Shown one piece after another: positions 1,288-61,198 of a stretch of DNA of 64,000 nt. Position 1 is the first letter of the stretch. The number at the start of each line of letters is the position of its first letter. The notes below the pieces were generated by a model. That model was given only the letters and a program-made list of their open reading frames with translations. It was not told the origin of the DNA and did not search any database. Origin of the DNA: Tubulanus polymorphus (lineage: Eukaryota > Animalia > Nemertea); NCBI RefSeq assembly GCF_964204645.1, contig NC_134027.1:16524485-16588484 (forward strand), in the 5' to 3' direction. Both the position numbers and the translations under genes were made by a program.

Positions 1288-1347
1288 AATATAGCTGCAA
1301 AGCAGCGATGACGGGTTTTCTGCACAGTCTTAGAATCCTGTTCAACG

Positions 1348-33000: not shown

Positions 33001-33170
33001 CAAGCGACCGCAATTAAGATGTTCAAAGTCGATTTATTCAAAAACGGGAACTGAGAGTTCTCTGGATTTTTTATATTCTCTAGATATCTTCATGACCTCT
33101 CAAATTGTATAATTCTCTAATACCGCCAAAAACTATAAATATGTTAAAAATGCCCATATTCCAGATTCGA
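30005..33170. repeat. 205-bp tandem array (about 15 copies)
   Basis: AGCCCATATTCCAGATTCGAC recurs at 30486, 30691, 30896 and onward; edge monomers are more diverged. Confidence 0.95.
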
Positions 33171-35958: not shown

Positions 35959-36160
35959 ATTAAATAATGATTCTAAAATAAAAGATTATAATACATCAGA
36001 AAATAATAGAACTGATAATGGTGCCGTACGGCACCCACACGGTGTTATTCAACATGATATAATTAAACTAAATGATAATAATAAATCCCATGAAAATACT
36101 AAATTAGCTATAACTTGTATAGGAATTGTAATCGGAGGAATATTATATTTTAGATTTTAA
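35959..36160 (+). CDS. C-terminal 66 aa of the split viral gene, with hydrophobic tail
   Basis: Joined to 1287 it reads ...ENIK-LNNDSKIKDYNTSENNRTDNGAVRHPHGVIQHDIIKLNDNNKSHENTKLAITCIGIVIGGILYFRF*; homologous to 61101-61198 plus 63599-63724. Confidence 0.85.
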
Positions 36161-36175
36161 TTTCTTATTATGTAA

Positions 36176-37842
36176 ATGGATGTAGAAGGTGGAGAAGATA
36201 TTCCAATGGATCCTTTAGATGAACCTGGTATAAGTGATGAACAACCACCTGATTTTAGTGAAACATGTTTTAATGATGATAATAAAACAGAATATAATAC
36301 TAATTTAGGCGAAGATGATTATGATGATGATCCCGAATTACGTGAAAAATTAAATAAATATTTAGAAGCTCCTGAAAGGGGTAGAATTTCAACTAGAAGA
36401 GAAAGAGAAGAATTTATGAAAGTATTAGTAGAACAACAAAAAAAATATCCTGATGAACCTATGGAATTATATAAAATGAAATCTAGAGTAACAGATACAA
36501 TTGTTAACGAATTATTACCAATAGTTGTATTACATGAAATTGATACAGAAGATGTTGTAGAACAAATTTTTAAAGATGACCCACATTTCACGAATAATTT
36601 AGAATTTAAAAATGATAGATGGTATTATAATCTTGATTTAAATAGGAATATTGTAACAATTCAATTATCTAGAAAGGATCAAGAAAATATTTATGAACCT
36701 GAAATGCTAGCAAGATCTACAATTGAACGTTCAAAAGGAGGCGCAGAATTTCTAAGAATTATATGGAATGCACTCGATAGAATAAATGAAGAAGAACCAA
36801 TTCCTAAAATTGATATAAACAAATATTCACCATTTAAAAATCCATTTAAAAATCCAAATCCTACTGATTTTGATCCAGAAATGGAAGAGAATAGAGATCG
36901 ACTAGATAGATTAAGATCTTCAACACCCGAAACATCGAGAAGAGACACTCAACCAATTGATAATTATTCAATTACAATTAGAAAAACAAATTGATAGATT
37001 AAGAGATTCAGAAGAACTGATGAATAGTGCTGGAATAAATCGACTGCAATATTTACTAGAAAAAGGATTTCTTAATTTAACTGATGAAGAATTAGAAGCA
37101 TTTCCTGAACAAATACGTAGAGAAATTAAAGGTATACAAGTATCAGCTGATGAAATTGCTAATATTAAGATGAGATTTTCTAAAATAACCATGTTAGAAA
37201 AAGAATTAACTAATACAGATGAAGAATTAAAACAATTAGAATTAATTAGAGATCTTAATGTAATTTATGAAGTTGGTTATGAAAGCAGAAAGTTAGCTTT
37301 AGAAAAAGAAATCGATGATTTAGAATATAACATAAAATTACAAAAAGAAGAGAGATATATTATTAAAATCATATGATCTCAATCATATTAAAAAATTAAA
37401 AGTTATTTTTAAAGATTTGTTGATTAAACCAGATTCTGAAATATCATTAAAAGACAGAATAAAATTGTTATTTAAATTAGAAGGAATAACAATTCTTTCA
37501 ATTCTAACAGCTGTAACTATATTATTTACAACAATTGGTTTAGCTATATCAAATGCTTTAAAATCAACTCCTACTCCTAACAAACCGGATAAACCACCGA
37601 GTAATAATTCTATACAAGATAAAGTTAAAGATGGTTTAAAGAAATTAGCAAAATATTTATGGGAACTATCCAAAAAATCTGCTGCAGCTTTACCTGGAGT
37701 TATTGCATCAATTGTTGGTTTTATATTGAAATCTGCAGGAAACATTATTAACTTTGCTGCTGAACATATTATTTTATTATTAATAACTGTTGTAAATGCT
37801 ATTATTTTTGGATTAGTAAACATGATATCAAAAAATAAATAA
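36176..37842 (+). pseudogene. Viral acidic/coiled-coil protein with C-terminal hydrophobic helices, apparently broken into three ORFs
   Basis: ORFs 36176-36994, 36957-37376 and 37417-37842 abut in different frames; the last two lack ATG starts. C-terminal part has several hydrophobic segments (ITILSILTAVTILFTTIGLAI, LPGVIASIVGFIL). Homolog begins at 63739. Confidence 0.65.
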
Positions 37843-37862
37843 TTAATTTTTTTGTTAAATAA

Positions 37863-39110
37863 ATGAGTGGGAGTTATATCAATCCTTCTAAGAATCATAG
37901 AATATCTAATGCTATTAAAGCAGAAAGATCACATCATATAATTACTCATAATCCTTCAAATATTAATCCCGATGAAACTTTATATGTTAGAATTCCTAGA
38001 TTAACACAAAATACTTTTTATGTTCCAAATAGTATTTATTTATCAGCCGATATAAAAGTAATCGGTAATAATAATAATTATGTTGTTGATAATGTTGGAA
38101 GATATTTGATTAAAAAGTTAACAATAAAGATTGGTCCGGAAACAGTTTTCTCATTAGATGATTATAATTTATTTATGCATTATAAAGATTTATGGTTAAC
38201 TAAAGAAAATAGAAATAATATGATATTTCAAGGCATCCAATCAGAAAACCAAAATAAATTAAGATCAGAAGCTAATAGCGCAATATTAACTAATGCTGTA
38301 GATAAATTGATAAAAAGTATATATGGAAGCAAATATAAAATTCCATTAGATTTTGAATTGATAAATAATAATGCACCTTTATATAAATACGCAATCCAAG
38401 AAGATATTATATTTGAGATAACATTTGCTCCTGTAAATGAAATTGTATTATCTAGCGTTGTTAAAGATATGAGTTATAAATTATCGAAGATATGTTTAGA
38501 ATATGATACAGTAACTGATGAAAATATTTCAAGTATAATTCAAACTAAATACAATCAAGGATTTTCATTATTATATGATTATATTGATAAATTTAAAACC
38601 GTAACTATTAATGCAAATGATGAAATTATTAATGAGAATATTAACTTCCCAAGAAGATCTATTAAAGGCATATTAAAATTTTTTACCATTGCAACATATA
38701 CTAATGGCGCAATAAATGTTGATAATTATTATAATCCTGAAATAACAAAAGTAGAAATAACTATCGAAGGAATAGCAAATAAAATATTTTGTCAAGGAAT
38801 GAGAATGATTGATCAATGGCCAGAAATTAGAAAACATTTTATGAATGAAAAAGTAAAATCATTTGAAAATTGTAACATTAATCAAATTGATTATTATACC
38901 GGTAATAAATATGCATTATGGTTAGATTTTAGAACAACAGAGGATAATTCATTTCATGGTTCTGGAAAAAAACTACAGAACACTAAAGATGGAATACAAT
39001 TATTCATGACAAAGAATAAAGGAATCAAAAATTTTAAAATGCACATTTATATTATATCTGACGCGCAATTAAATATTATAAATTCACAATTAGATAGTGT
39101 TATGTATTAA
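37863..39110 (+). CDS. Putative double jelly-roll major capsid protein (415 aa)
   Basis: Beta-rich pattern typical of Polinton/PLV capsids (LYVRIP, LIKKLTIKIG, YKIPLDF, ITKVEITIEG, YALWLDF); suitable size; context with ATPase and integrase. Confidence 0.75.
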   Translation: MSGSYINPSKNHRISNAIKAERSHHIITHNPSNINPDETLYVRIPRLTQNTFYVPNSIYLSADIKVIGNNNNYVVDNVGRYLIKKLTIKIGPETVFSLDDYNLFMHYKDLWLTKENRNNMIFQGIQSENQNKLRSEANSAILTNAVDKLIKSIYGSKYKIPLDFELINNNAPLYKYAIQEDIIFEITFAPVNEIVLSSVVKDMSYKLSKICLEYDTVTDENISSIIQTKYNQGFSLLYDYIDKFKTVTINANDEIINENINFPRRSIKGILKFFTIATYTNGAINVDNYYNPEITKVEITIEGIANKIFCQGMRMIDQWPEIRKHFMNEKVKSFENCNINQIDYYTGNKYALWLDFRTTEDNSFHGSGKKLQNTKDGIQLFMTKNKGIKNFKMHIYIISDAQLNIINSQLDSVMY

Positions 39111-39142
39111 AATTTTAACTTTAATAAAAATATATATAATAA

Positions 39143-39901
39143 ATGGAAGGAGGTAAAGTATATAAACATATTCCATACATCGATACACATGAAAATAATG
39201 ATGGTTTATATTATGTAATACCTTGTAATATAGCTTTGATATTTGATCGTATTTTCAAAATTTATCAAACTAAACTAATAGAAATCGATAATAATAAAAG
39301 TGAAGTTGTTGATAATTTAAATAATGTAATTGATAATAATGTAATACCTACTACAGTAATACCTACTACAGTAATACCTACTACATCTAATAATGATAAG
39401 ATTGAACCTGATATCAAAACCAAAAAGACAAATGAAAAATATTGTGATGTATGTAAGAAATATATATCATATAAAAATTGGGCATCACATAAGAAATCAA
39501 ATAAACATATAGAAAAAGAAAAGAATAATAATGATAATAATATATCTGATAATAATATAATAGATAATATCATAGATAATGTTAATACAATTGAAACAAA
39601 TGATACCATAGATAATATAACAGATAATGTTAATACAATTGAAACAAATGATACCATAGATAATATAACAGATAATGTTGATACAATTGAAACTAATGAT
39701 AATGAAACAATTGATGATTCTAAAAAACATTGTAACATTTGTAATTTAGATATTTCTAAAAGTAATTTTTCTAAACATAAAAAATCTCAAGCGCATATCG
39801 AAAATGAAAAGAAATTAGAAGAAATAAAATGTGCCAATATTGTAATAAGAAAATTGAACTTGTTGATGAAAATACTCATTATAAATCAAAGTTACATCTA
39901 A
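39143..39901 (+). CDS. C2H2 (U1/matrin-like) zinc-finger protein with internal repeats
   Basis: YCDVCKK...HKKSNKH and HCNICNL...HKKSQAH; 3x15-bp (VIPTT) and about 3x48-bp repeats. Confidence 0.75.
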   Translation: MEGGKVYKHIPYIDTHENNDGLYYVIPCNIALIFDRIFKIYQTKLIEIDNNKSEVVDNLNNVIDNNVIPTTVIPTTVIPTTSNNDKIEPDIKTKKTNEKYCDVCKKYISYKNWASHKKSNKHIEKEKNNNDNNISDNNIIDNIIDNVNTIETNDTIDNITDNVNTIETNDTIDNITDNVDTIETNDNETIDDSKKHCNICNLDISKSNFSKHKKSQAHIENEKKLEEIKCANIVIRKLNLLMKILIINQSYI

Positions 39902-40302
39902 TTAATGTTTATAAAATGGTGAGTATGTTACCATTGTTAAATAACGCAGAGAAATATATCAAATATTTTAATCCTAAAACTAACCAATATTATATATTCT
40001 ATAAGTTGTTATTTGATAAATTATTAGCTTATGCAGAAGATAATCCTAAACAAATATATAAATTATTATATTTTAGAAAAATAGATTTAAGTTATCTAAT
40101 ACAAAATTTTGGAAATCATTTTGATTTTGATTATGATGATTTTGATGAATACTTAGAAAAATTAAGAGAAAAAGCTAATATACCTACTAATTATTATGTT
40201 AAGATGACTCAATTAAAATTAATAAATCTACCTAAGACTTTTGATGAATTATATATAAACAGAGATGATTTTATAAATATAATAGAAACAAAATTAGAAT
40301 AA
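39829..40302 (+). CDS. Zinc-finger-containing ORF, probably the frameshifted continuation of 39143
   Basis: Starts with CQYCNKK...HYKSKLH, overlapping the upstream ORF in another frame. Confidence 0.6.
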   Translation: MCQYCNKKIELVDENTHYKSKLHLINVYKMVSMLPLLNNAEKYIKYFNPKTNQYYIFYKLLFDKLLAYAEDNPKQIYKLLYFRKIDLSYLIQNFGNHFDFDYDDFDEYLEKLREKANIPTNYYVKMTQLKLINLPKTFDELYINRDDFINIIETKLE

Positions 40303-40735
40303 TTATTATAAAACTAATTTATATATCTATATACAAGACGTACGTAAAAATCTTGGTAAGAATCCAAGAATCCAAGAAATCTTACTTTCTTGGTAAGAAT
40401 CTTACTTTCTTACTCGTACGTCTAGTACATAGATATATAATTTAGTTTTCATAAAAATTAAAAACATAAAATTATTAATCTAAGTATAGAAATAGTTATA
40501 ATATAATCTATTTTTATTTTTATAAAGAGAAAACATATAATTTATTCATTTTTATAATTTAAATTTAGAATAATTATTATAAAACTAATTTATATATCTA
40601 TATACTAGACGTACGAGTAAGAAAGTAAGAATTCTTACCAAGATTCTTACTTTCTTACTTTCTTGGCAAGAATCTTACTTTCTTACTCGTACGTCTAGTA
40701 CATAGATATATAAATTAGTTTCTATAATATTCCAA
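40295..40735. repeat. Two tandem ~165-bp imperfect palindromes between convergent gene blocks
   Basis: Arms AAACTAATTTATATATCTATATACTAGACGTACGAGTAAGAAAGTAAGA and its near reverse complement; present twice (about 40295-40460 and 40565-40735). Confidence 0.85.
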
Positions 40736-40746
40736 ATTATAAATAG

Positions 40747-41358
40747 TTATTTTATAAATTTATATTCATACGGAAATTGTAGTCTCAGTAATAATTTTGA
40801 ACCTTTATTATTCTTTAATTTATTCATATATTCATCGTGTAATTCAGTAGGTATAATTTGATTTTCTTCCAATGATTGTTGCATAGATTTTTTATCTTTG
40901 TTATAAAATAAAACTAGAAATCTTATATTCTCCCTAAAGTCTTTAACAATTGAATTATATTTTTGATTTAAAACCCATGTTGTTATCCCGAAATGTCTCC
41001 CAGAGAAAGCTAGATAACATAACTCACTTTCTCTCACTTTTGAATCATGTAAATTTGCGCAATCATCTATAATGAATAATGTATTTGACCCTTTATAAGT
41101 ATCAATTGCTATTTTTATACAATTATCTAAATTTTCTTTTACTGTTTTAGGATCTAATATAATAAACTTTTTCATCTTAACTATATCTCTATTATATGTT
41201 TTATTCATTTCATAAGTAGGACAGAATAATATTATATTATCAAAATGATTCTTATAAATAGTTTCTAACAAGTCTAATATGAAATGTGTTTTACCACAAT
41301 TGGTTACTCCAGTTATTAACATATTATGAGGTTCAAATATAAATAAATCTTTATTCAT
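40747..41358 (-). CDS. FtsK/HerA-superfamily (A32-like) genome packaging ATPase
   Basis: Walker A GVTNCGKT, Walker B LFIIDD, arginine finger SGRH, conserved Q in WVLNQ. Confidence 0.92.
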   Translation of the reverse strand: MNKDLFIFEPHNMLITGVTNCGKTHFILDLLETIYKNHFDNIILFCPTYEMNKTYNRDIVKMKKFIILDPKTVKENLDNCIKIAIDTYKGSNTLFIIDDCANLHDSKVRESELCYLAFSGRHFGITTWVLNQKYNSIVKDFRENIRFLVLFYNKDKKSMQQSLEENQIIPTELHDEYMNKLKNNKGSKLLLRLQFPYEYKFIK

Positions 41359-42475
41359 TTATTCTTTTAATTTTACTAGATAAAATCCATTCATTAAATT
41401 TATCATCATATCCTTTATATTTCACCAAAGAATACTTTTTTCCTTTAAGAGTTTTTGTTTTCAATACTTTTTCTATTTTGTATTCTATTTCATCTGGATT
41501 TGGTACAAGTGATAATTCTTGTTCATAGAAATAACCTAATATTTCTTCATCTTTTAGATCTTCTAATTTATAAACAAAAGGTTTAGTTAATATTATCTTT
41601 TTAATTTTAAATATTTCTTCTGTAAAATTTGGAGTATAACCTTTATAAAAGGTTTTTCTATATTTAGATATTCTTACGTGTTGTCCTATTTTAAATTTAG
41701 GTTCACCGAAATCGTGTGTAACAAACGCACCATATAAATTATTCCAAACTATTTCCGAATTATCTTCTTTTCTAGCTTGTATAGGTTTCATATTTATAGA
41801 ACTATGTTTAGAATTATTATAACCTTTCACTAAATCATCTAATATATTTATAGACTCATCGATATATTTATATGTTTCATTAGCAGTAAAATATTTCCAC
41901 ATTCTAGTTTTCAATGTTTTATTAAATCTTTCTATAATAGATGCTTTTTTGTCTGAGTGTGTTGAAAAATATTTTACATCGTTATCAGATAATAGTTTTT
42001 TAAAATGTTTGTTATAAAATTCCTTACCTTCATCAAATTGTATCTTATCTGGAATAGCTTCTTTAAATATAGATTTAAAAGCATTTGTCACTTCTATACC
42101 AGTTTTATTTTTGATCGGAATTGACCATGCGTATCTACCGAATATGTCTATAACATTCAGTATCCAGAAATATCCTTTGTTGTATTCTTCTAAGTTCTTC
42201 ATATCAATTAAATCTGCTTGCCATTGTTGATCGATATATGAAACCATAACATTCCTTGTTAAATAAGTTTCATCCATTTTCCTGTGGATTTGATATGTTG
42301 GTTGATTTTGTAACCATGATTTCAATTCACTATATTTTATACCACCATGTGGGTGCCGTACGGCACCATCACTATTATCAGATTTAATTTTATTCCATAA
42401 TTCTGAAACGTTAGAATATGATACTTCACTCTCTGGGTTATAATATAAATCTCTTAAACATTGTTCTTTTTTCAT
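41351..42475 (-). CDS. Retroviral-type (rve) DDE integrase with C-terminal chromodomain
   Basis: WQADLIDM, IQFDEGKEF, IERFNKTLK, YNNSKHSSI; chromo YKIEKVLK...LVKYKGYDDKFNEWI. Confidence 0.95.
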   Translation of the reverse strand: MKKEQCLRDLYYNPESEVSYSNVSELWNKIKSDNSDGAVRHPHGGIKYSELKSWLQNQPTYQIHRKMDETYLTRNVMVSYIDQQWQADLIDMKNLEEYNKGYFWILNVIDIFGRYAWSIPIKNKTGIEVTNAFKSIFKEAIPDKIQFDEGKEFYNKHFKKLLSDNDVKYFSTHSDKKASIIERFNKTLKTRMWKYFTANETYKYIDESINILDDLVKGYNNSKHSSINMKPIQARKEDNSEIVWNNLYGAFVTHDFGEPKFKIGQHVRISKYRKTFYKGYTPNFTEEIFKIKKIILTKPFVYKLEDLKDEEILGYFYEQELSLVPNPDEIEYKIEKVLKTKTLKGKKYSLVKYKGYDDKFNEWILSSKIKRINE

Positions 42476-42481
42476 TCTATT

Positions 42482-42853
42482 TTAATCCATTAATAATAAT
42501 TTAGATTTAGTTTCAATGGCTTTATGATTTGACTTATTTTCTGGTATAATATGTTTCCGATTGTCATTGGAATCATATTTATCATCAGATTTGAACTTTG
42601 ATTTATATATTACACCGGATAATATAATAACTGTTACTAATCCAATTGTAATATATAATTTATAATTACTTCCAGCATTAGAAGAATCAGATGGATTATT
42701 ATTTGAATCAATATCAGATAAAGTCTGTGATTCATTTATATCAGTTAATTTCTTTTTCTTAGCTTTTTTTAATTCTGAAGATCTTTTACCTAATTCTCTT
42801 GCCCATTTAATTTGTTTCTCGGATCTAGCCTTTTTCTTAACTCCATCACTCAT
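42482..42853 (-). CDS. Small basic protein with one transmembrane helix
   Basis: Basic N-terminus (KKKARSEKQIKW) and LYITIGLVTVIILSGVIY; overlaps neighbours in viral fashion. Confidence 0.65.
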   Translation of the reverse strand: MSDGVKKKARSEKQIKWARELGKRSSELKKAKKKKLTDINESQTLSDIDSNNNPSDSSNAGSNYKLYITIGLVTVIILSGVIYKSKFKSDDKYDSNDNRKHIIPENKSNHKAIETKSKLLLMD

Positions 42854-43448
42854 TTATTTTAGTTAATTTTTGTTCTGATTCATTTTTTGTTTCGACGTTT
42901 GGTTGTAGTACATCTGTTTCGTTCTTACCTGATTTATATTCCATAGGCTTGATATTCGAAAATGTTATGACGCCAGTAGAAATTAATGTCATAACCGATC
43001 CTAATTGAAATGAAGCATATCCGACCCATTTTTGTAATTCAGTCATAACTAAGTAGTCATTTTTCAAATCACTATATAATTTATTTTCATCATCAATTGG
43101 TATTAACTGGTTACATAACTTAGAATAACATTTGACAATACCATTCGAAATAGAATCATTTATTTTAGCTAATCTAGCTTCTTCATAAATCTTAAAATAT
43201 TTTATTACTTTATCTGGTTTCATAGAGTCTAGTTCTTGAAAAGTAATGATTCTATTTAAAAACTCCTTAGATTTCCCACCAGCAATCAATAATTCAAGAT
43301 GATGCTTACAATATAAATAGTATTCATAATCTATATTGTTATTAACTTGAATAGAATTAGAAACAACTGTATCTTTATTATCACTTATACCTAAATCATC
43401 TAATGTCTTTTCAATATCAATACTATTCTTATTAGATTTCTTTGACAT
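42846..43448 (-). CDS. Hypothetical viral protein (200 aa)
   Basis: ATG-initiated ORF in the tightly packed minus-strand block; hydrophobic segment near the C-terminus. Confidence 0.65.
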   Translation of the reverse strand: MSKKSNKNSIDIEKTLDDLGISDNKDTVVSNSIQVNNNIDYEYYLYCKHHLELLIAGGKSKEFLNRIITFQELDSMKPDKVIKYFKIYEEARLAKINDSISNGIVKCYSKLCNQLIPIDDENKLYSDLKNDYLVMTELQKWVGYASFQLGSVMTLISTGVITFSNIKPMEYKSGKNETDVLQPNVETKNESEQKLTKINE

Positions 43449-43694
43449 TTATATTAGAGAAAAAAAGCAAAAAAAATATTATAAGTATTCTTCAAATGAT
43501 ACTAGTATCTCTTTGGGTTAATACTAGTTAGTTAAAGGTAAAGAATTTTAGTATTAGTTATTGTTTTTTTAGTATTTTTTATTTGTGATATAAAGTATTC
43601 TTTTTTGAAAAGAAAATATTAAAAATATAATAGAAATAATAGCTAGTTGAAGTTATGTAATTTTTATTATATTTTATTTAAAATCTATTATTCT

Positions 43695-44360
43695 TCAACC
43701 ACTCATTAAAGACTCAACATATTGTTCATTATTTGGATCATTGTTCCATAATTCAATGAATTTCTTTGCTTTATCTAATTGATTCAAATATAACTGTATA
43801 TCTAGTTTATTAGATTTAATTATGTTTTCTTTCTTTTCAAGAGGTCTTAAATTCTTCCAGCACCAGATTAGCTTCTTATTATAATCATCACTCATGTCAA
43901 ATTTAGATATTGGTAACACGTGATCGATATGGTAATAATCCCCATAATTATCTATATTCATTTTATCATCGAATTGAAATATAATCCATGATTTGAGAAA
44001 TTCATCTGAACAACCCAACAAATTAGATAATGTTTCTGAATGTGTTTCTTTGTTGAATAATTGTGTTAATCTAGATCTTAAGCATTGTTTCAATCTAAAA
44101 TTAAGATCTGTTTGATATCTTCCTCTCATATATTCTGCCATATAATAATTATAATGTTCTATATTATCTTCTCGATATTGTTTGGTATATAGTTTAGTAC
44201 AAGTTTTACAGCAATATTGAAAACCATCTTTGCTAATCTTACGCTTACTAAATTCTGTTAATGATTTATCTAATTCACACTTAGAACACTTCTTGTAATA
44301 TATATTTATAACACCAGTGTTATTTGTAATATTGATAGTTTGTGGTTGTTCTGATTCCAT
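43695..44360 (-). CDS. Zn-ribbon plus HNH/endonuclease VII-like nuclease of the type seen in large DNA viruses
   Basis: KKCSKC...CCKTC, then LLGCS...YHIDHVLP...WKNLRPLEKKENIIKSNK (His-Me finger pattern). Confidence 0.8.
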   Translation of the reverse strand: MESEQPQTINITNNTGVINIYYKKCSKCELDKSLTEFSKRKISKDGFQYCCKTCTKLYTKQYREDNIEHYNYYMAEYMRGRYQTDLNFRLKQCLRSRLTQLFNKETHSETLSNLLGCSDEFLKSWIIFQFDDKMNIDNYGDYYHIDHVLPISKFDMSDDYNKKLIWCWKNLRPLEKKENIIKSNKLDIQLYLNQLDKAKKFIELWNNDPNNEQYVESLMSG

Positions 44361-45239
44361 TTATTATACATATTTTTTTACTAAATTGGTTAATAATTTT
44401 AGAATCCTCTTCCATTTCTTCGACCAACGTCATCTTTTTTCATTCTTCGTTGCTTTTGATAAGTCGTTTCGGTTCCTTGATATCTAAATCATACCAGTTA
44501 CAATACCCGCGTCACATGCGGCCATTTATGGCCGGTTTTGCTTAATGCGTATGCGTTAATCATAATAGAAACGACTGAACATAAAAATTCACCAAACAGA
44601 TTTACACAATACATTATACAAGTTGTTCGGCCGTTTCTTCCAATACATCATTTGATTTCTATAAATACAATTTATAATTACAAACATTTTTTCAATTGCT
44701 GGTAAATATTTAACTATATCAACAAATGTTAAACTTAATCATTGGAGTCTTAATGTTTTTGAAATTCGTACATAGTTTCTTCGTCGATCTTTTGGCGATT
44801 CTATTGGTTTGATATCCATTGCTGTTGATTCCCCAGTCAGAAAGAGTATCTTGAGTTTCTCTATCGCTTCTTGAAGCGTATGATGTTTTATTAATCTAAA
44901 AGATCTTAGTGGTAACTCTAGCTATCTGAAAGATATACTAAATACACTTAAATATATCTAAAGGTTTCATATTTAATAGCCTTAATAACTACAAAAAACA
45001 GTACTTACATTTAGATTTATAATTGTAAACTATAAACTCCTAATTTCGTTTCGAGAGATAGAATATCCTGAGCACAATATTACAGCGTATATTCATTTCT
45101 TGCCACGTCATCTGGTTCCGGTTCTAGAGTGTTCTCTCTCTGCACGTTTGTAATAATGAGTCATAAGTCTCGGCGTCATAGTAACAGCTGTGAATTTATA
45201 GATTTATTCCATAGCTCTTTGCATGGAATGTATATAGGC

Positions 45240-45476
45240 TCAAATAGAATCATGTTCTAGTATAAACATCGGATCCTCAACGTATTGTTCATTATTTGGA
45301 TCATTATTCCATAATTCAATAAATTTCTTTCCCTTTGTTAACTGTTCTGAATATAACTGTAAATATTCTAGTTTCAATTTATTCTCTGAATGTGTTTTAG
45401 TTTTATTGTGTCTTGCTTTTTGGGATTTATCTAAATTGATATTACACGTTGGACAGTAGTACTTATTTGCTTCCAT
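45240..45476 (-). CDS. Small C2H2 zinc-finger ORF next to the terminus
   Basis: YCPTCN...HNKTKTH; C-terminus KKFIELWNNDPNNEQYVE duplicates the HNH C-terminus. Confidence 0.55.
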   Translation of the reverse strand: MEANKYYCPTCNINLDKSQKARHNKTKTHSENKLKLEYLQLYSEQLTKGKKFIELWNNDPNNEQYVEDPMFILEHDSI

Positions 45477-45556
45477 TTTAATACTAAATTTTTTATTAAA
45501 ATTGATTTTAGAAGTTCAATGATTTAAATGTTATTCATTTATATGAATATTTTAAG

Positions 45557-45922
45557 AGTAATAGGGGTAATGGGCTTTCAAGCTAAAGGTTGAATGGTCG
45601 AGTTCATTAAAAACAAATATTAAAAGTAATTTAAAACTATAATATATTTTCATAACCGTGTGTATTTCAGTTGAACAATATTTGTGTATTGTAAATAAAT
45701 CAATTGGTCGCGGAGCGGAGCGGTAGCGAAGTGGAGCGACCAATTGATTTAATACAATATGCTTTTTAGATTATTGATATCTTAGAATAAATATTTAGTT
45801 TTTAATATAAAATGTGCACGGTTATGAAAATATATTATAGTTTTTAATTACTTTTAATGTTTTGTTTTTTAATGAGCTCGACCGTTCGACCTTTGATCTG
45901 AAAGCCCATTACCCCTATTACT
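45557..45922. repeat. 366-bp terminal fold-back palindrome of viral copy 1
   Basis: AGTAATAGGGGTAATGGGCTTTCA...TGAAAGCCCATTACCCCTATTACT; centre AATCAATTGGTCGC-(GC-rich loop)-GCGACCAATTGATT. Confidence 0.9.
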
Positions 45923-46339
45923 GATGGCTACAACGCTACACCTCACGGGGGTATTTCAGATATGACTCCCGAAGAGGCCGGAGAATCCCGAAATGAAGAA
46001 AGGTTACTGTTCGAAAATATCGGCAAATCCGAACCCCCTAAGAGCCCGTTCAAGCCAGGCGACAGCGTAAGGAAAAAGCTGAAAAGACCCGTGTTCAAAA
46101 AGGGTTACAAACAGATATGGGGCCAAACAGTCCACTCCCTCGCGTCTGTGGAAGGCTTAAAAGGGGTCCTCGATAATGGAGAATCAGCTAGGTTGGACGA
46201 TCTGCAACTAGTGATACCTCCAGCTGAAGAGAAGACGACGGTAGACGCTGTGTCCGTAGCCGACAAAGAGCACAAGATCAGAGCAGACTATCAAGCACAA
46301 GGAGGGTTTGTCACCCGAAGCGGTAATGCCCTCGAATAG
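45923..46339 (+). pseudogene. C-terminal fragment of Maverick integrase
   Basis: Reads DGYNATPHGGISDMTPEEA...FKPGDSVR...FKKGYKQIW directly from the junction with the hairpin; homologous to the end of the 41351-42475 integrase core. Confidence 0.8.
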
Positions 46340-46356
46340 CAGGTACAGCCTGCGAT

Positions 46357-49300: not shown

Positions 49301-50022
49301 CGAGGCCAGTATTGACCACTTAAGGCAGTGATCATCTCTATTTTTGACATTTACGACGGCGTGTCTTCTCTTGACTGCGACGGGGAGGTCGATATAAGAA
49401 CCGCCTCTCAACGGTTGATATCTGGCGATATTCAGGAATAGTTCGACTACCCTCTCTACAGCCCATCCGGAACCTTCTCTCATATAATTCTCAATACTCT
49501 GTAAAACCCTAGCTTCAGCTTTACCCAACTCCTCATTTATGTTAGCCGCCTTCGATAGAACGTATTGCTTTGACCAGAAGGGCGGCTCGACGTGCGCATA
49601 GGTGCCGTCGTTCTTCTCCTTCCTCAACGAAACCCGCAGAGCAATGGAGAATTTTACACCCTTAAGGTCAATGATCTCCTCGACTAACTTCTCCCTTACA
49701 TTGTTCCGCTGCTCGCGCAAGAATATCGACGGATCAGTCACATCGGTGGCTGGTCTCAAAACCCAGGCCCTCAGATAATTTTGGATAGCAAACGGGGCCC
49801 TATGAAACGCGGGTTCTGGCTCCGGTAGAATCTCATCCCAAATCGGATCATCGTCCGGTATAATGTTTTCTACCTTGTACTTGGGTTTTCTGGGGGCGGG
49901 TTTTGGCTTTCTCGGAGCAGGCGTCGGCCTGCGGGTCAACTGGTTGATGGCATCGGCATATGTTGCGACAGTAATCTGCCCGTCTCGAAGTAAATCGGTC
50001 AGACTTTTTACCGCGCTGTCCA
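46357..50022 (-). pseudogene. polB: Protein-primed family B DNA polymerase with one frameshift near 48020
   Basis: Exonuclease motifs IYADFE, FHNLRGYD; inserted endonuclease VII-like CYVC...DHDHITG...AHNECN; polymerase motifs YLDANNLYG, KLMNNSVFGK, YTDTDS. Two overlapping ORFs (47969-50098 and 46357-47976). Confidence 0.93.
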
Positions 50023-50400
50023 TTTTGCTTTCGCATATATGAGAAATGTATGTCTCTAAATGGAAATTTTTGGGGGGCCCCTCGACAGAAGTCGGCACAC
50101 GCCGAGTGTTGGCCGGGCCTGGCCACGTCCAAGGGACATGACTCTGGGTGCCTGCCGATGTCTCGGTTGTTTGCCGGCTTCTGCATCAGCATAGAACTTT
50201 CTAGGCTATTTCGCAATCAGTGACAATCAGGTCGCACCGCTGATAGCGTCAGCTTAAGAGGTGAATTCCAGGTCAGAGCGTTTCACATACTTGTATATAC
50301 CGTAAATATCTATGTAAATAACACTTTGTTGTAGGTGCATTATAGCGGTTGGTTTATAGGGGCTGGAGGGGGTTTGCCGGCCCCTTGGCGTGTTTTCCAT

Positions 50401-50715
50401 GGTCCACAGGGGTTCTTCTTAGGGTATTTAGGTGGAGAAAAAGCTTTGAGGGGGTACATAGTACACCGGGGTAAGGATGGGCTGCGCCAGAACCGCGGTC
50501 CACAGGGGTTGTCTTCTTAGGGTATTTAGGTGGAGATAAAGCTTTGAGAGGGTACACGGTATACCGGGGTAAGGATGGGCTGCGCCAGAACCGCGGTCCA
50601 CAGGGGTTGTCTTCTTAGGGTATTTAGGTGGAGATAAAGCTTTGAGAGGGTACACGGTATACCGGGGTAAGGGTGGGCTGCGCCAGAACCGGGGTCGGGC
50701 TGCGCCAGAACCGCT
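50401..50715. repeat. About 3 copies of a ~97-bp subterminal repeat of the Maverick
   Basis: GGTCCACAGGGG at 50401, 50497 and 50595. Confidence 0.88.
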
Positions 50716-51567
50716 ATTTTGTATACTACTAATACATTACTGTTCCGTTTCTATATTAACTGTGGAAAAAAGACTCCGATATAGTAACCGTAGTACTATA
50801 GCGTCTATGAATAGCGAGCAAGTATCAGCTGAACATCAATGCGTTTTGCCGTACTATCGACGTTGCAGTACGCGCTTCGAGGAACTGCGGTGGATGACGT
50901 CATTCGTCCGTCCATGACGTACCTTGTTGTGTCTGGTAGCTGTTGCGTCACTTCGCGGTAAATTCTAAACTCAAACTGTGAACTGTTTTGTGCTTAACTT
51001 TCGACTGTTTAGTGTGCGGGGACAGCGGTCTCGAATGAACTTTTTTCCGATTGGGTATCCAGAACTTTAAATGCGGTTTTATGATAAACTATATCATGAA
51101 GTTTAATATGCGTTGTAGTGTCGAACTCTAAGAAATAGTTACTCGTTATAATGAATTGTTTACTAATGTTCTTTTTCAGGATTTGTTCTAGAGGTATCAG
51201 CGGGATATTCACGAGTTGGTTTAAATTCAAAATTTCGGGACGAAATTTAAACTGGATAGGGAGTGTTGATCCACAGGTAGATTTTCGTAGTAACTGAAAA
51301 TGTTTCGTTGTATTTAGAAATGTTCTTAATGTTGTTTCCGTATGCGTGGGGGTTACGTTAAAGCCGTCAGACAAGAACGTACTAGTAGTAAGAATTACGA
51401 AAGTTTTTGTTTGATGCTTTCATCTACCAACGCAAGCCATAAATCAGTCTATAAACAACAATTCTTTCTCGGTTCTTCTGCTGTGAGATCTGGCAAACAT
51501 TCAGAAAATCTTTATATAAAACTTTTAAATAGTTGGAACCATATTTGGTTTGGTCGGAACAATGGAG

Positions 51568-52505
51568 TGTAATGAGGCTCGTGAAGGGATCACGCTGATA
51601 CTTGATGATATTCCCGGCTACTTTCCGTAAAAGGAAAAACCGGAAGTTTAGGAAGATGTGGTTGTTTTGCTTATCCTGTATTAAAATAGAATTAGTTAAA
51701 TTGTAGATAAAATAATTAGTATAAGTATTTCAAATAATTTAAGAATTGACAATCAATCACAATGTATTCCGAATCGTAGTTAATTATAATAATTAAAAAA
51801 AGAAACAATGAATTTGTACTGTAATTAGAAAAGAAAACAATGTTTTGAAAAGATATTTAATTTGAGTAATCTAGATGTTGTTTAAGAACAAATTGTTAAT
51901 AATCGCTAATGTTTTAGAAAAATTAATTTGTGTTAAATGTTAAAACTAGCTGTCTGAAGTTTCTGTTGTCTGTATGCGCTCGTTGGTAATTCACAGACAA
52001 TAGCTGCTCTCTCAACAACGACTAGCAAGGAGTGAGTTGAGGAGGGTTGGAAGGAAAAAGTAAGTTTAGCAAATCAGTATTGAAAATAATTTTAGATCAG
52101 CGAATCATCAAGGCCAAATTCTATATGACCAAAACAGTCATTACAGTAAGGTTGCTGCTCCTTGCCAAAAGTCGAGTGGGAGAATCGGTATTTTAAGAAT
52201 GCCGATTCTTTCTATAAAAGGGACCCGCATCTTGAGAGAGCAGTCAATCGAGAGAATCTGTACCTTAGTAAGACGAGTGTCGACAGCAGGACAGGAGAAC
52301 CTTCGGAACGATAGGGATTCATATACAATAGGGATTAGGAAAATCATTCTTTGTTCAAGGTAAATAAAATATATTATCTTCAATATTATCATCCGGTATT
52401 TCAATTTATTCATTCGGATTTGTGCACGGACACGTTCTCTCGCCAGGGCCTTACTCAAGTATTTTATAGATAACGATTAAAGAGAGGATTGTGACCGGTG
52501 TATCA
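51568..52505 (+). repeat. Possible solo LTR
   Basis: TGT...TCA boundaries, TATA-like TCTATAAAAGGG near 52211 and AATAAA near 52363; truncates the decayed BEL pol. No TSD found. Confidence 0.25.
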
Positions 52506-55500
52506 ATATTTATGCAATCGAAATTGAATCAAAATGGAACAAAGGCCATTAATCAAACAAGGACCTTTATGAAGACAATCGTTTAGACTCGGTTTACCAT
52601 TCTTTCTGCAACTACAATTATAGACAATTCGAATCGGTGTTGTAACACTCTCTTTAACTACTGCGTGGTGAGGTATGCAATGACATGGCTTTTTATTCAA
52701 AACTTCCTCCTCGTCGACCAATTCAATAACACCTCTTTCGATTTGTTTCTGAATTATCTCATTATACTTGATAAGTGATTCAGATGTTAATCTGCGAGCC
52801 ATCGATCTTGTTCTAGATCTACATATACTGTAATTATCAGGTAACTCCAAGTGATCAGATTTCCAAGGTAAACGGGCTATATACCGGCCATCTTGGAATT
52901 CGATGTTATTTTGACAATAGTTATCATAAAAACAAATATCCGTGTCTTTCTCATCAGCAATAATTCTCAAGATCAATATTTTCTTGGTCATGTGAAGTAA
53001 TGACACACATTATTTGGGCGTTAGAATCACACTCATTCATATAAGGACCTGATAATAAGTACCCTAGCTTCCAAACAGCGGTAGGACCTGTACCACGAAT
53101 TACCCGGTCCCCCACAAACGACCAATAACACCAATCAGTACAGAAATTTCAAAGCAGTCCGAATCGACAGTTGTGTTGGCTAGTTTGAGACCTTAAAGGT
53201 AAGGGTATCTATTAACGGCCGATTCAACCTTTGTTGTTAACGGAGATGCCAAAGCTGGATAAACAATAGCATCGACGGCAATTCTTTCACCAATCATGGT
53301 TTCAACAAAAATACGCACTACTTCTAGGTTTCTTTCACTTTGTTTAATTGCACCAAAAGTAGAAACATTGACTTTTTCTGATCTTATGGGTTTAAGACCT
53401 AATTGTTCAACCATTTCTTCAGTCACAAATGATCGAGTCGAACCTTCATCGAATAATAAATTGGCTGAATATGGCGTACATTTCTGACCGTACACATTTG
53501 TAACTGCAGTTTTCAATAGAACTGATTTATTTATTGATACATGCAAAAAAGTTTCCCAAGTCTCCGTTTCTACCTAACGCATGCGCATTAGTCAGAGCTG
53601 GAATTGCTCTAAGTCGAGAAAACGGCACATTGCGCATGCGGCACTACATGTGAGCTACATGTGAACTTTAATGACTAATAGTCGCTGTAGTTTCCATTAG
53701 GTTCGAATCCCGTAAAAATATTGATCTTATTTACGCTGTTCATCTTATAAGCGGCGCTATCAGATTCGAAACCCGAAAATTACTGATCGTATTTCAAGCG
53801 TTACGACATGAACTTTGATGATTAAAGTGTCGCTGGGTTATTGTTTGCCCAGTAAAAAAGTGATAGCATCCCGAATATGAAATAATGAACTTTGATAGCC
53901 CCAGGAATTACTTTTAAGTGCTATTAGGTTCGAATCCCGAACGTGTAGCAGAAAAAAACATTCATCATTTTTAATATACCGATATATATCTTAGATTTTT
54001 AGCTTATGGCAAGACCACTTGAACACCTGTCATTCCCAAAAATACAAATGATCCTATAAGAGGATCATTAAGAGTCTTAAGTGACCAAACAAACTGCGCT
54101 TTTCCGCTGCGCAAAAGTTCACGCAGGTTCATTCCGTTATAGTTCTACGTTTCAGCGTTCTGACATGACTCAGTTTAGGAAAAAATACACATGTAGCGAC
54201 GCATGCGCACGCGACCAATTTCTGGACTTAGAGGATTTCCCCCAACACTTTCTAATGCGCATGCGTTATAAACAGAGACTTTGGAAACTTTACGGTTTTT
54301 GCTTGATACATGCGATTGATGTACTTCATTTGGAGGTTCAAATTCTGATTTATGTGTCTCATTCTCACCAGAAGAGGGCGACTGCTTCTTATCAGTATGT
54401 CGGGAAAAGAATTTCGAGCCACATAAACTAGAATGGTGATTGCCTTTACACCGTTTGCACCGAAACTTCGACTGACACTTGTTAGACAAATGTGGGCCTA
54501 AACAATTAAAACATAATAGTTTAGATTTAACAATGCCAAGTCGTTTTTCTACATCAACTATTTTGCTACAATTTGTCGGATTATGTGTTTCTTTGCAAAA
54601 AACGCAAGAACGTTGCTTGATGTCAGTAGCATTAAAAAATGATTCTGCTGTTGAGGATGTTAAACTAGGTTTATGATTAGAGCGCGCGGACTCCTCTCCG
54701 AGAACAAGAGAATCGAGAACATTAATTTCCATCTGCAATAAGCAACGCAAATCGAAGAGAGAAATATCTAAATTACCGCTATTCTGACGAGCTATATTCT
54801 CTATCACACATTTAAGCAACTTTTTTACAATAAGAGGCACTAACAACTTAGCATAAGTTTCCGGTCCCTGTGCAAGAGCTTGTAGACCACGTACGCATTT
54901 TTCAATTGAATCACAGTACTCGCGTAATGAAATCTGATTATAACTGGGTGGTTTTAACTCTAACATGGCGTTCATATAGGCGTTAACAATCTTATGCTCC
55001 AGGCCATATCTTTCAAGTAGAATATCTATAGCGATACCATAGTTAGCAGTTGTAAGAGTTAAACCAGAAATTGCCCTAGCCGGTTCCCCTTCTAACAGAC
55101 TCCGCAAATAGTTAAATTTCTCAACGTAACTCAAATCCGATACTTGATGTACAGCAGCATTATAGCTGTCCCAGAATTCAGGGAGGTCTTTAATATCGCC
55201 ATAGAATTTATGCAAAGTCAGTTTAGGTAATCTGCTGTGAAAACTAGTTCTTCGAAATTCGTTGGCATCCGGGTTCAATTTCGATGATAAGCGTAAGTGT
55301 GACTTACCAAGGCAGTGAATTATGCGTTCAAGGTCTTCGGTGTACTCAACCGCGTTACTGACTTCCTCTTCCAAATCGTTTAGGGTTGTTAGCTTTAAAA
55401 TCTTTTCGTCGACCTCGCGAATATTTCGTAGTTGACGCTTCAATCCTCCGATGAGCGATTCTATTTCGTCCGATGTTTGAAGGTCGACATCTGCCACAGC

Positions 55501-55899
55501 AAACAATTTGTCCAATTGCGACACCATTTTCGTCACCTGGCCGCGGTGACCACCTCTACTCTTCACCAGCCTAGACAGCTCCTCAGGTGTTTTCGTCATC
55601 CTGGTCACGGCACCAATTTATGTCGTAGAAAGTACAGACTAGCGAAGATTCGATACCCAAATACCAACAACGGAACCAGCAACGACCAGCGTATGATATG
55701 AAATGCACACAGATTTATTCCTTAACACGTATTTATACCCTGACACAATAACAAACAGTAACAATGATTTTGACCAGTACGGAGAGCATTCTGACTTAAC
55801 AATAGAGTTAATACACACTTTAAATTCAGCTTATGATAAGGATTATCAGTTTTACAACGAGGTTTATACACAGTTTATCGAACGATATTTCCAACAATC
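52503..55899 (-). mobile_element. Decayed, truncated BEL/Pao LTR retrotransposon
   Basis: Gag 55608-54312 (LPKLTLHKFYGD, zinc knuckles), protease LFDEGS (53193-53542), pre-RT IPHHAVVKES...IRIVY (52503-53006). tRNA-His-type PBS TGGTGCCGTGACCAG at 55601-55615. Partial LTR 55621-55899 cut by viral copy 2. Confidence 0.88.
53543..54302. mobile_element. MULE-like MITE (760 bp)
   Basis: Imperfect ~110-bp TIRs GCAAAAA...TTTTTGC; 9-bp TSD TTGATACAT (53534-53542 and 54303-54311). Removal rejoins Gag-protease as QSHVSINKSVLLKTA. Confidence 0.82.
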
Positions 55900-56020
55900 A
55901 GTAAATGGGAATAAGTTGTTTCAAGCCAAAGGTCGAAAGGTCGAAAAATAAATTCTCGCACACTCAATTTATTTTTCGACCTTTCGACCTTTAGCTTGAA
56001 ACAGCTTATTCCCATTTACT
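55900..56020. repeat. 121-bp terminal fold-back palindrome of viral copy 2
   Basis: 55-bp arms AGTAAATGGGAATAAG(T/C)TGTTTCAAGC(C/T)AAAGGTCGAAAGGTCGAAAAATAAATT with 2 mismatches; 11-nt loop CTCGCACACTC. Confidence 0.92.
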
Positions 56021-56079
56021 CTTAAAACATTAATCTAATAACTTCTAAAATCAATTTTAGTAAAAAATTTGATATTAAA

Positions 56080-56421
56080 ATGGAGAGTTAACAAATACAC
56101 AGTGAATTCTTAGATAGAATTAAAGATACTACAAATGCTAAATCTGTAGATTATAACTTTAAGAAGTTAACAGAATTAACAATTCATAAGAAATATTTAA
56201 TTACAAATATTGATACAGTTTCTAACAAATATGGAGATAAATTAGTTATCCTTTTAGAATATGAAGGATTAAAGGGAAATGAATATAAATTCAGAACATA
56301 TTTACCAGATAGATTTCATAGATTATCAAGTGAAGATTTAGAAGAATTATGTTCAGGTGATTTCTATTTCATATATAAAGGTAAGAATGAAAAAGGGCAC
56401 CATGAAAAAGATTTCGAATAA
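56080..56421 (+). pseudogene. Small terminal viral gene, frameshifted near its start (not in ORF track)
   Basis: Open from 56101: SEFLDRIKD...FKKLTELTIHKKYLITNIDTVSNKYGDKLVILL...FRTYLPDRF...FYFIYKG. Beta-rich; an OB-fold role is only a guess. Confidence 0.6.
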
Positions 56422-56437
56422 AATATGTAAAATAAAC

Positions 56438-57180
56438 GGTAGAATTAAAATATAGAATATTTGTTGATTCAAGAAGACTTACAAATTATAAATCACATAA
56501 TTTACTAGTACAATTAGATAGAGAATTTAAAAATTGTGTAGATTTGAAATTAGTAAATGTAAGTTTATGTAACTCTTTTTAGAATATTGGATAAATCTAT
56601 TGAACATAGAGACTTTTTAATTCATGACAGAAATAAGAATAGATGGTTTCATCTTTATCTTAAACCAGGATTATATAATTTAGAAACATTAGCTCAAGAA
56701 ATTAATAAAAGAGCACGCTCAAAAATGGGCGCATCAGGATTTGGATTAAGACCGATTTAAAGTGAAAGCTCTGATAAAGTAACAATAAAATTAGGAAATG
56801 AAGATCAACATCAATTTCTAGTTAAAAAACCTTTAGCTAAAATTTTAGGAATAACCCCAGATGTAAGAATACGTAATGCTGATGCTACACCAAACTCAAT
56901 ACCCTTTACACACTTTTACATTTATTGCAATTTAATTGACCCTACAAAGACATTTGAAGCAACTAAAGATACAATTTGTAATTCTGGTTTATTGAATATT
57001 TTACCATTGAAGAATGTTAAAGAATTTGGAACTCAAATAAATTATAATTTAGCCGAGTGTGATTTCAAACCTTGTATTCCTCAATTTAATAATTTTAGAT
57101 TAGTAATTAGAAATCACAATGGATAGTTAATTGATTTGAATAACTTTCCTGTAATTTATGAATTAGTTAAGAAATTTTTT
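56438..57180 (+). pseudogene. Minor capsid (penton-like) protein, decayed (not in ORF track)
   Basis: YRIFVDS...NSF*NI, HLYLKPGLYNLETLAQEIN, FYIYCNLI and FRLVIRNHNG*LIDLNNFPV match the Polinton/PLV minor capsid pattern; several stops. Confidence 0.7.
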
Positions 57181-57191
57181 TCACTATATAA

Positions 57192-57533
57192 ATGAATAAA
57201 ACTGTTGGACCGAGTATATGTTTTGGGTTTGATTTTAAACATGGCAAAGAAATGAGAATTAAACTAGATGATGTAATTAATGCTTTTAAAAGTAAATCAT
57301 TTAATAATGCATCAATGATTAATAAAAAAAATTATAATATAGAAAAAGTAATTGATTTAATTAAAACATTTTTAGAATATTATGAATTAAATGAAGATGG
57401 AATTAGCGATGACATTAAAAACATATTTTCTAAAATATATGATAATCATAAAAGTAGTAATGAAATAAATGTTGAAATAATCATAACTAAGTTAACTAAA
57501 TATTTTGAAGATTGTAATTTTTTTGATAAATAA
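57192..57533 (+). CDS. Hypothetical viral protein (113 aa)
   Basis: ATG ORF abutting neighbours in the viral block. Confidence 0.55.
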   Translation: MNKTVGPSICFGFDFKHGKEMRIKLDDVINAFKSKSFNNASMINKKNYNIEKVIDLIKTFLEYYELNEDGISDDIKNIFSKIYDNHKSSNEINVEIIITKLTKYFEDCNFFDK

Positions 57534-57755
57534 ATGAGTGATAATAAGTGGATAATAACTGGTTTATATAATGGAGCATTACTATCAGTTGGAACTGTTG
57601 GTTATACAATGGTATTAAAAAAAGTATTCAAAATGGGAAGTATTAATGTTGATAGATTTGATATAAATGATATCTTAAAATTAACGTTAGCAGTTACTTT
57701 ATCTAATTTAACTATTGATTATTTGGAAAAACAAAGATATATTCCTTCTATATAA
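57534..57755 (+). CDS. Small hydrophobic viral protein (73 aa)
   Basis: TAAATG stop-start junction; two hydrophobic segments. Confidence 0.6.
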   Translation: MSDNKWIITGLYNGALLSVGTVGYTMVLKKVFKMGSINVDRFDINDILKLTLAVTLSNLTIDYLEKQRYIPSI

Positions 57756-57779
57756 ATGCGTAATGTTTTTGTTAAATAA

Positions 57780-58220
57780 ATGGCATCTGCAATTATTGCT
57801 ATTATAGGGTCAGCAATAGTTAACGCTTTAGCATTTACAGGTGGCGGATATTTGTTTAAGCATATTGATAAAAATAGTTCATTTGGAGAACAAAGAAGAC
57901 ATAACTTAGCATCAGAGAAATATAATAAAGCTGCAGAAGAATATAGAGAAAAGAGGCAAACCTATATGGATTACATTAACAAAGAATTATATAATCAGAA
58001 AATTTCACATAGAGATTTTCAATCAGTCGATGATGCTATGAGTTTATATAATGCAGTAACAAATGAAAAAAAATTACATCTATATAAACCTAAATTATCA
58101 GATTATTATACCCCAAGTAGTGAACAGAAGAAATATGAAATAATTTGGATTTTAGGTGGAACAGTTATTGTATTTTTGTTGCTAATAAATTTACTAATTA
58201 GTAATTTCTTTTCTAAATAA
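57780..58220 (+). CDS. Viral protein with hydrophobic N-terminus, coiled coil and C-terminal TM helix (146 aa)
   Basis: MASAIIAIIGSAIVNALAFTGGGYLF...; C-terminal IIWILGGTVIVFLLLINLLI. Confidence 0.65.
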   Translation: MASAIIAIIGSAIVNALAFTGGGYLFKHIDKNSSFGEQRRHNLASEKYNKAAEEYREKRQTYMDYINKELYNQKISHRDFQSVDDAMSLYNAVTNEKKLHLYKPKLSDYYTPSSEQKKYEIIWILGGTVIVFLLLINLLISNFFSK

Positions 58221-58651
58221 ATGGATGATAAAGTTGATAATATTGATATTATTCCTCATGATATAAATAAAACTAAATGAAAATTATATTTGGAAAAACA
58301 AATATTAGAATTTGAAAGTGACTTAAAGATAAAAAAGAAAAAATATTTAAAATCTAAAATTATATATTATTTTATTATTAGTGGATCAGTTACAATTAGT
58401 TCTGTAATAACATTTCTAGCATTATGCTCACCATTAACACCTTAAGCTATCTCAATTGGTGTGTAGGTTAAAGTTCAAGTGTTTTAACCGGAATAAGTTC
58501 AAAATTAGATATAAAAAGTAATAAAGAATAAATAAAATCTAATATAAAATAAAATAAATTAAAGAATACATTTGATTATATAATAAGTTTAAATGGTAAT
58601 ATAACAGTTGAAGAACAAGATAAATTATTAAAAGAATTAATTAATTATTAA
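58221..58651 (+). pseudogene. Two-TM viral protein, decayed
   Basis: MDDKVDNIDII... with in-frame stops; C-terminus NGNITVEEQDKLLKELINY matches window positions 1-60. Confidence 0.55.
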
Positions 58652-61100: not shown

Positions 61101-61198
61101 AAAATTAAAAAATATATTCAATCACTTGAAACTAAAACTAAGAATATCAAATTGGATAATGATTCTTAAATAAAAAATTACAATACATCAGAAAATAT

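Follow-up and report, generated by a model that had tools for sequence, protein, structure and literature searches.

A many-copy Maverick/Polinton-type element with palindromic ends and no detectable replicase in Tubulanus polymorphus, a possible satellite of a poxvirus-like helper

Mavericks/Polintons are defined as self-synthesising elements, and their described relatives that lack the DNA polymerase pPolB carry another replicase. Group 2 Mavericks/Polintons, as described in the available part of one survey, combine a double jelly-roll (DJR) capsid, an A32 ATPase, an rve integrase and AGT-ended terminal repeats with a variable replication module and a SLATT-like open reading frame (ORF), and have either pPolB or an SF1/SF3 helicase fusion (10.64898/2026.06.19.733378). 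The Tlr elements of Tetrahymena, in the passages at hand, possess capsids, an ATPase and an rve integrase with neither pPolB nor a protease, and encode an SF1 helicase (PMC4028283). Here we analyse a 64,000-nt stretch of the nemertean Tubulanus polymorphus genome (contig NC_134027.1, positions 16,524,485 to 16,588,484; hereafter the window), which contains a many-copy endogenous Maverick/Polinton-type element with its own capsid, ATPase and integrase and no detectable replicase. It resembles both groups in these shared features, yet has neither the pPolB nor the helicase fusion of group 2 Mavericks and, unlike Tlr, no SF1 helicase. Compared by description rather than by profiles, it also differs from group 2 Mavericks in lacking a protease and in its palindromic ends.

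Terminal palindromes, an rve integrase and the absence of pPolB are shared with the endogenous virophages and PLVs (polinton-like viruses) of Halocafeteria, in which the palindromes, according to the passages available, occur mainly with non-pPolB replication genes and hairpin priming has been proposed, as yet untested; these elements differ in their protist host and their other replication genes, and the same passages describe no poxvirus-type promoter (10.64898/2026.07.28.741278). Entomopoxvirus-associated PLVs are likewise small DJR viruses proposed as parasites of poxviruses in an animal, but each of the four has a gene for PolB or for a D5-like primase-helicase, and the words "promoter" and "TAAATG" are absent from that text (PMC11296320). 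With poxviruses themselves, as covered in excerpts of two sources, the element shares TAAATG gene starts, fold-back ends and very AT-rich DNA (PMC8956199; PMC4542343); unlike them, it has no resolution motif, integrates by means of rve, has its own capsid and carries no transcription or replication enzymes. Partially accessible reports further describe butterfly polintons with cargo and without polB (10.1101/2025.02.07.637071), coral elements of which most have PolB (PMC11131425), and replicase mosaicism (10.64898/2026.10.13.758929). In the full-text literature, with subscription papers mostly outside it, we found no animal Maverick that combines absence of a replicase, palindromic ends and TAAATG starts; the supplements of two 2026 surveys may already include the clade.

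Two colinear AT-rich copies of one element (GC 0.23–0.25 versus about 0.39 in host DNA) are present in the window, as an initial annotation of the sequence had proposed, and they overlap at positions 1–1238 and 58592–59832 with 92% identity over 1.24 kb (Table 1). Joining the left end of copy 2 to copy 1, as that annotation did, yields an end-to-end composite of about 13.9 kb (by arithmetic alone, the lengths total 13,944 bp), and the gene order along it is as claimed. The join between positions 1288 and 35959 was also upheld. It is backed by copy 2 itself, whose segments 61100–61197 and 63611–63879 match 1237–1288, 35958–36005 and 36047–36325; by raw reads from X6 (a share of about 12% of one sequencing run, at 85% likeness), 297 of which jump from 59830 to 61100 and represent the form without the first insertion of copy 2; and by L003, an independent 11.5-kb relative with the same left arm, in which a single 442-aa protein spans the join, its residues 1–382 corresponding to 77–1279 and its residues 392–440 to 35984–36157. 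Capsid, ATPase and integrase genes are intact in copy 1, and several left-arm genes are broken in the window copies. Of the single changes between the two copies in their shared gene (386 codons), 39 are synonymous and 31 non-synonymous (pN/pS 0.18), indicating that both copies diverged under selection, while functional.

The functions originally assigned to the main genes were confirmed. An alignment-based AlphaFold model of the major capsid protein (MCP; pLDDT 86, pTM 0.87), used instead of a single-sequence fold of pLDDT 29.5, matched the DJR capsids of PBCV-1, iridovirus and mavirus in Foldseek (best E 1.4e-16). Family matches identified the A32-like ATPase, the integrase with rve and chromo domains, and the HNH gene. 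The capsid and integration module relate the element to the Mavericks/Polintons (Polintoviricetes), and the element lies outside the classical Polintons, having neither pPolB nor protease while keeping the virion and integration modules.

Searches of profile libraries with the element ORFs gave no polymerase or primase family match, and helicase-family matches were weak and confined to the P-loops of the ATPase and the kinase. A six-frame motif scan of the element produced no credible replicase, and tblastn with the window pPolB against the element returned nothing below E 0.36. Family and motif scans of the element revealed no SF1/SF3 helicase, no AEP or PolA replicase and no HUH nickase with an SF3 helicase, and no Walker A motif besides that of the ATPase. 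An adenain-like cysteine protease had no family match, and its motif occurred in short non-coding frames only. The proposed lack of pPolB, helicase/primase and adenain protease therefore held in profile, motif and tblastn scans. Silence of Pfam was rejected as proof of pPolB absence because Pfam, like NCBIfam, misses the polymerase domain of the true pPolB in the window; PHROGs detects that GC-rich pPolB (E 1.6e-14). The largest unexplained stretch of the element, 879 bp, is the decayed ORF and is far too small for pPolB. Among the five closest relatives (L001–L005, 32.3 kb in total, including 11.5 contiguous kb in L003), none contains pPolB, which tblastn found in 2 of 23 loci (L008 and L023).

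Both ends of the element are near-perfect palindromes, and the proposed hairpins are strongly favoured over shuffled sequence: the folding z-score is −19.0 for the left palindrome (equalled by none of 200 shuffles) and −27.7 for the right one (none of 100). Terminal inverted repeats are present, the two ends compared coming from different copies. The X6 read depth at the left loop (about 700) and in the right arms (1400–1750) is at the level of the element, indicating that the palindromic ends are features of the family. All four terminal arms of the element begin with AGTAA, whereas the pPolB element shows AGTAGT repeats. Contigs vary near the right end, with a joint from 45507 to 44396 and loose ends at 45364 and 45522.

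The pPolB of the window lies outside the hairpin, in a GC-rich Maverick remnant, as first annotated; its assignment to the AT-rich element was rejected on the basis of its different GC content, its own end and an interrupted integrase gene. The remnant has the C-terminal half of that gene, which copy 1 interrupts (45923–46339) and whose product is 32% identical over 71 aa to the integrase of the element. The end of the remnant contains no inverted repeat of at least 14 nt. Annotators should keep the AT-rich element apart from this adjoining Maverick. Copy 2 does not lie inside a Maverick, and with one case of nesting, chance and targeting are both possible.

A common gene-start signal, TAAATG, opens 14 of the 18 ORFs considered in the window, which represent 16 distinct genes; TAAAATG stands at three further starts, and neither at that of the integrase. 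The signal is found at 30 of 31 starts in the relatives (L003, 15/15; L001, 7/7; L005, 5/6; L002, 3/3). Internal ATGs of the coding strand carry it at 9 of 252 positions in the window, and the difference between starts and internal ATGs (22/389) in L003 has a p value of 1e-17. Stop-start coupling was rejected as the cause, the gap being 0 in 1 of 12 L003 gene pairs, and so was base composition alone, since TAAATG opens 3 of 4 genes in L008 at GC 0.44 and 0 of 3 in L015 at GC 0.30. A T at position −3 opposes the host Kozak preference. The capsid genes of four elements have a tract of 7–8 T followed by about 6 nt and then TAAATG, which we take to be the vaccinia late layout. The pattern T5-N4-8-TAAATG occurs at eight sites in the whole 64 kb, seven of them at element ORF starts, and 12 times in L003 against a shuffle mean of 0.9; this strict pattern is significant in the copy 2 left arm and L003 (0/200 shuffles) and borderline in L001 (5/200). 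The helper-type promoter is recognised here by sequence match, to a helper consensus drawn in part from reference titles.

The TAAATG trait marks a wider 39-row capsid clade that includes the pPolB-bearing L008, so the promoter by itself is no sign of polymerase loss, and helper-type transcription seems older than that loss. No TAAATG starts were found in L015, L016, L018 (0/12), L020, L023, L025–L030 or L032, and L031 has 2 of 8. The gene starts of the window, L001, L003 and L005 fall into two upstream classes, a T-tract class (capsid and membrane ORFs) and an A-tract class (zinc-finger, HNH and some other ORFs), which loosely resemble poxvirus late and intermediate promoters. L018, a more distant relative, encodes a VLTF3-like late transcription factor (5082–5579; Pfam E 3.6e-5) and has a TATA-like motif upstream of several genes. 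According to the portion of the source available, TAAATG is the vaccinia late start (PMC4542343).

A metagenome scan recovered 22 loci, and in the closest relatives (L001–L005) the MCP is 70–76% identical to the window capsid. In a quick, midpoint-rooted tree of 55 of the available capsid rows, which did not include L002 (a locus that resembles L001), the window protein fell with L001, L003, L004 and L005 into an 8-row clade of support 100. L003 is one contig that starts 124 bases before its first gene; its left arm matches the element gene for gene and is followed by the integrase, the ATPase, two conserved ORFs, a nucleoside kinase and a zinc finger. Deoxynucleoside/thymidylate kinase genes occur at 10340–10981 in L003 and 2898–3380 in L007, both of the TAAATG clade. 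A viral contig collection held no relative by capsid, ATPase, integrase or terminal motif, and a genome contig collection held distant, short loci only. The Maverick-like capsid, pPolB or integrase contigs L023 and L025–L035 lie in prokaryotic genome bins and are probably host DNA contamination.

The X6 read depth was 372–889 in seven element bins, 44–84 in five pPolB bins and 16–18 in the two lowest bins; the element thus has about 9.5 times the depth of the window pPolB and 21–55 times that of the lowest bins, which points to tens of copies at least. These depths exclude 35961–44000, where other copies could hold extra genes. Summed contig depth of run X1 relative to X2, measured over 44001–45922 and 56007–59341, was 18–61 in the left arm, mostly 4–9 in host repeats and 1–3 in pPolB, which could reflect element amplification in one sample or library bias. 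Viral amplification was rejected as the reading of the high X1 depth, because the ratio follows GC content and copy number cannot be read from summed contig depth.

The absence of a replicase, the palindromic ends and the TAAATG starts are accounted for most simply by an integrating satellite whose transcription and DNA replication are provided by a poxvirus-like helper in the cytoplasm, a reading to which we give a little less than an even chance. The initial annotation had proposed a polymerase-less lineage dependent on host or helper replication. This proposal fits all tests made, including the pPolB-free close relatives, and is qualified by the pPolB of the neighbouring L008; "host or helper" is narrowed towards a poxvirus-type helper by the TAAATG gene starts. 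The deoxynucleoside kinase carried by L003 also argues for the satellite. Such an element would stay silent in the chromosomes of its host, placed there by its own rve integrase, which would require the conserved AGT ends. On infection of the cell by a helper that transcribes in the poxvirus manner, the helper's RNA polymerase would read the TAAATG promoters; the palindromic ends would fold back and prime DNA synthesis like the hairpins of poxviruses and parvoviruses, and the helper polymerase, in the factory of the helper, would take over from the lost pPolB. The ATPase of the element would load the genomes into the capsid that the element itself encodes, and further copies would be integrated with their palindromes open, as they stand in the window; all steps beginning with helper transcription are our inference. 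According to the accessible part of PMC8956199, concatemer junctions carried on plasmids, heterologous ones among them, are resolved into linear mini-chromosomes in cells infected with a poxvirus. We suggest, still more tentatively, that there are replicase-free, hairpin-ended, germline-integrating animal satellite viruses that have their own capsid and take transcription and replication from a poxvirus-like helper. If so, the element would be an endogenous "poxvirus virophage", pointing to undiscovered poxvirus-like viruses in such hosts, and a virophage-like lifestyle in animals would have been carried to full replication dependence. Two questions would become testable: the trigger that reactivates Mavericks in animals, and the identity of the large DNA viruses of such hosts.

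Several observations weigh against this satellite. No helper virus turned up, no search for one having been made. The poxvirus concatemer-resolution motif, searched as a pattern that agrees with the sequence in PMC8956199, had 0 matches near either end, and the published entomopoxvirus-associated PLVs, in the excerpts at hand, retain their own replicase (PMC11296320). The satellite reading offers no route by which the integrase would get free ends from hairpin-closed DNA. The strict promoter pattern is without significance in the right part of copy 1 (2 matches, 15/200 shuffles) and in L005 (16/200), and L008, of the neighbouring clade, has TAAATG starts and a pPolB beside its capsid gene. No single window copy has both ends, and L001 may be identical with L002. 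L003, L001 and L005 are open at the right, and the right end, which often houses replicase modules according to passages of 10.64898/2026.07.28.741278, is reached by none of the close relatives. Finally, a 16,883-bp contig with an L003-type capsid gene is long enough to include pPolB.

It is possible, though unlikely in our judgement, that the copies mapped here arose by deletion, are non-autonomous and are replicated in trans by a rarer master copy of their family, with pPolB or a helicase/primase close to its right end; transcription may still need a helper in this case. The pPolB of L008, the contig differences beside the right end (45507 to 44396; 45364 and 45522) and the 16.9-kb contig, with its room for pPolB, agree with such a master, as do the frequent replacement of pPolB by SF1/SF3 helicases in group 2 Mavericks (10.64898/2026.06.19.733378) and the continued mobility of PolB-less insect polintons (10.1101/2025.02.07.637071), both as given in excerpts. 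However, the replicase-free layout is repeated over up to 11.5 kb in relatives whose capsids are 70–76% identical, the X6 depth from HNH to the right hairpin (611–889) is as high as that of the element body (372–874), and the four AGTAA arms are not those of the pPolB element.

Nuclear, parvovirus-like replication, with the palindromes priming host polymerases, HNH or the integrase resolving the ends and no helper involved, appears improbable. The chromodomain integrase implies nuclear access, and at both ends the palindrome is followed by a conserved inner segment, an arrangement that we take to resemble parvovirus ends; the same model has been proposed for protist elements in the passages available (10.64898/2026.07.28.741278). 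Against this model, the element scans gave no HUH nickase or helicase, the HNH gene changes place and is missing in L003 (11.5 kb), and TAAATG at the start codon, which would leave no space for a host polymerase II leader, is unaccounted for. Least probable of all, we consider, is an autonomous element in which an orphan ORF (442-aa, 114-aa or the decayed 0.9-kb one) is an unrecognised replication protein. These three ORFs match no family, and even a true pPolB polymerase domain was overlooked by Pfam and NCBIfam; however, the 442-aa ORF, which has a hydrophobic tail at its end, also stands beside pPolB in L008, the 114-aa and 0.9-kb ORFs are too small for a polymerase, and the only Walker A motif is that of the ATPase.

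Table 1. Coordinates of the element copies, their genes and the adjoining Maverick remnant in the window
Feature	Position	Strand	Remarks
Copy 1	1–1288 + 35959–45922		
Copy 2	55900–59832, 61100–61197, 63590–64000		runs off window end
Left fragment of copy 1, with 442-aa ORF from 77	1–1288	+	followed by 34.7 kb of host repeats and Pao/BEL
End of 442-aa ORF, then coiled-coil/transmembrane ORF in pieces	35959–37836	+	copy 1; 485 aa in L003
DJR major capsid protein, 415 aa	37863–39110	+	intact; T-tract + 6 nt + TAAATG start
Zinc-finger ORF region	39143–40302	+	two overlapping ORFs; single 408–431-aa ORF in L001, L002
Cluster of ~50-bp inverted repeats	40304–40729		meeting point of two transcription units
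A32-like packaging ATPase	40747–41358	−	intact; Pox_A32, E 2e-12
rve integrase + chromodomain	41351–42475	−	intact
Two conserved ORFs, 123 and 200 aa	42482–43448	−	function unassigned
HNH/endonuclease VII-like ORF, 221 aa	43695–44360	−	E 3e-19; place varies among relatives
Decayed 0.9-kb ORF	44361–45239	−	read depth like element body
78-aa zinc-finger ORF	45240–45476	−	adjoins right terminal repeat
Right terminal palindrome, copy 1	45557–45922		AGTA...TACT, 366 nt
GC-rich Maverick remnant	45923–50730		GC 0.51; tandem-repeat end terminating ATACTACT, no hairpin
Split pPolB of GC-rich remnant	46357–50023	−	
Left terminal palindrome, copy 2	55900–56020		AGTA...TACT, 121 nt, 55-bp arms, 11-nt loop
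Inner terminal-repeat segment	56021–56084		inverted relative to 45472–45556; ends in promoter/start of first ORF
Small conserved ORF	56080–56421	+	~114 aa in L003; broken near start in window
Putative minor capsid (penton)	56436–57171	+	fragmented; 254-aa intact orthologue in L003
Four small/membrane ORFs (113, 73, 146 aa, broken SLATT-like)	57192–58648	+	all start with TAAATG
Copy 2 of conserved 442-aa ORF, broken	58668–59832	+	host-repeat insertion after
Copy 2 bridging fragment	61100–61197	+	between two host insertions
Copy 2 resumes: end of 442-aa ORF, start of coiled-coil/transmembrane ORF	63590–64000	+	leaves window

Among the smaller genes, the 114-aa ORF bears a resemblance that may point to an ssDNA-binding role, and PDB sequence searches identified neither its family nor the capsid. 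The putative minor capsid, tentatively assigned from a motif together with its conservation, had no match in family and PDB sequence searches, and one of the membrane ORFs gave a weak SLATT-like profile match. The decayed ORF, with its stops read as X, had no match in family searches; one protein search with it used a single frame and covered longer proteins only. The HNH ORF (43713–43808) and the 78-aa zinc-finger ORF (45276–45374) have a common C-terminal segment with 83% DNA identity, which, together with the contig joint from 45507 to 44396, suggests that cassettes are swapped beside the right end. The cluster between the two transcription units is made up of four alternating copies of the inverted repeat with the core CGTACG.

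The 34.7-kb insertion in copy 1 contains extended satellite arrays with a period of 31 bp, a 205-bp tandem array (both within 2800–22600 and 29985–33170), and an intact 1811-aa Pao/BEL retrotransposon at 23024–28459. The long terminal repeats of the latter (22784–22984 and 28824–29024) are 100% identical, which points to its recent arrival within copy 1. A further Pao/BEL, now decayed, lies at about 52100–55750, and a PHD plus UCH-like ORF is located at 29032–29772, inside the 34.7-kb insertion.

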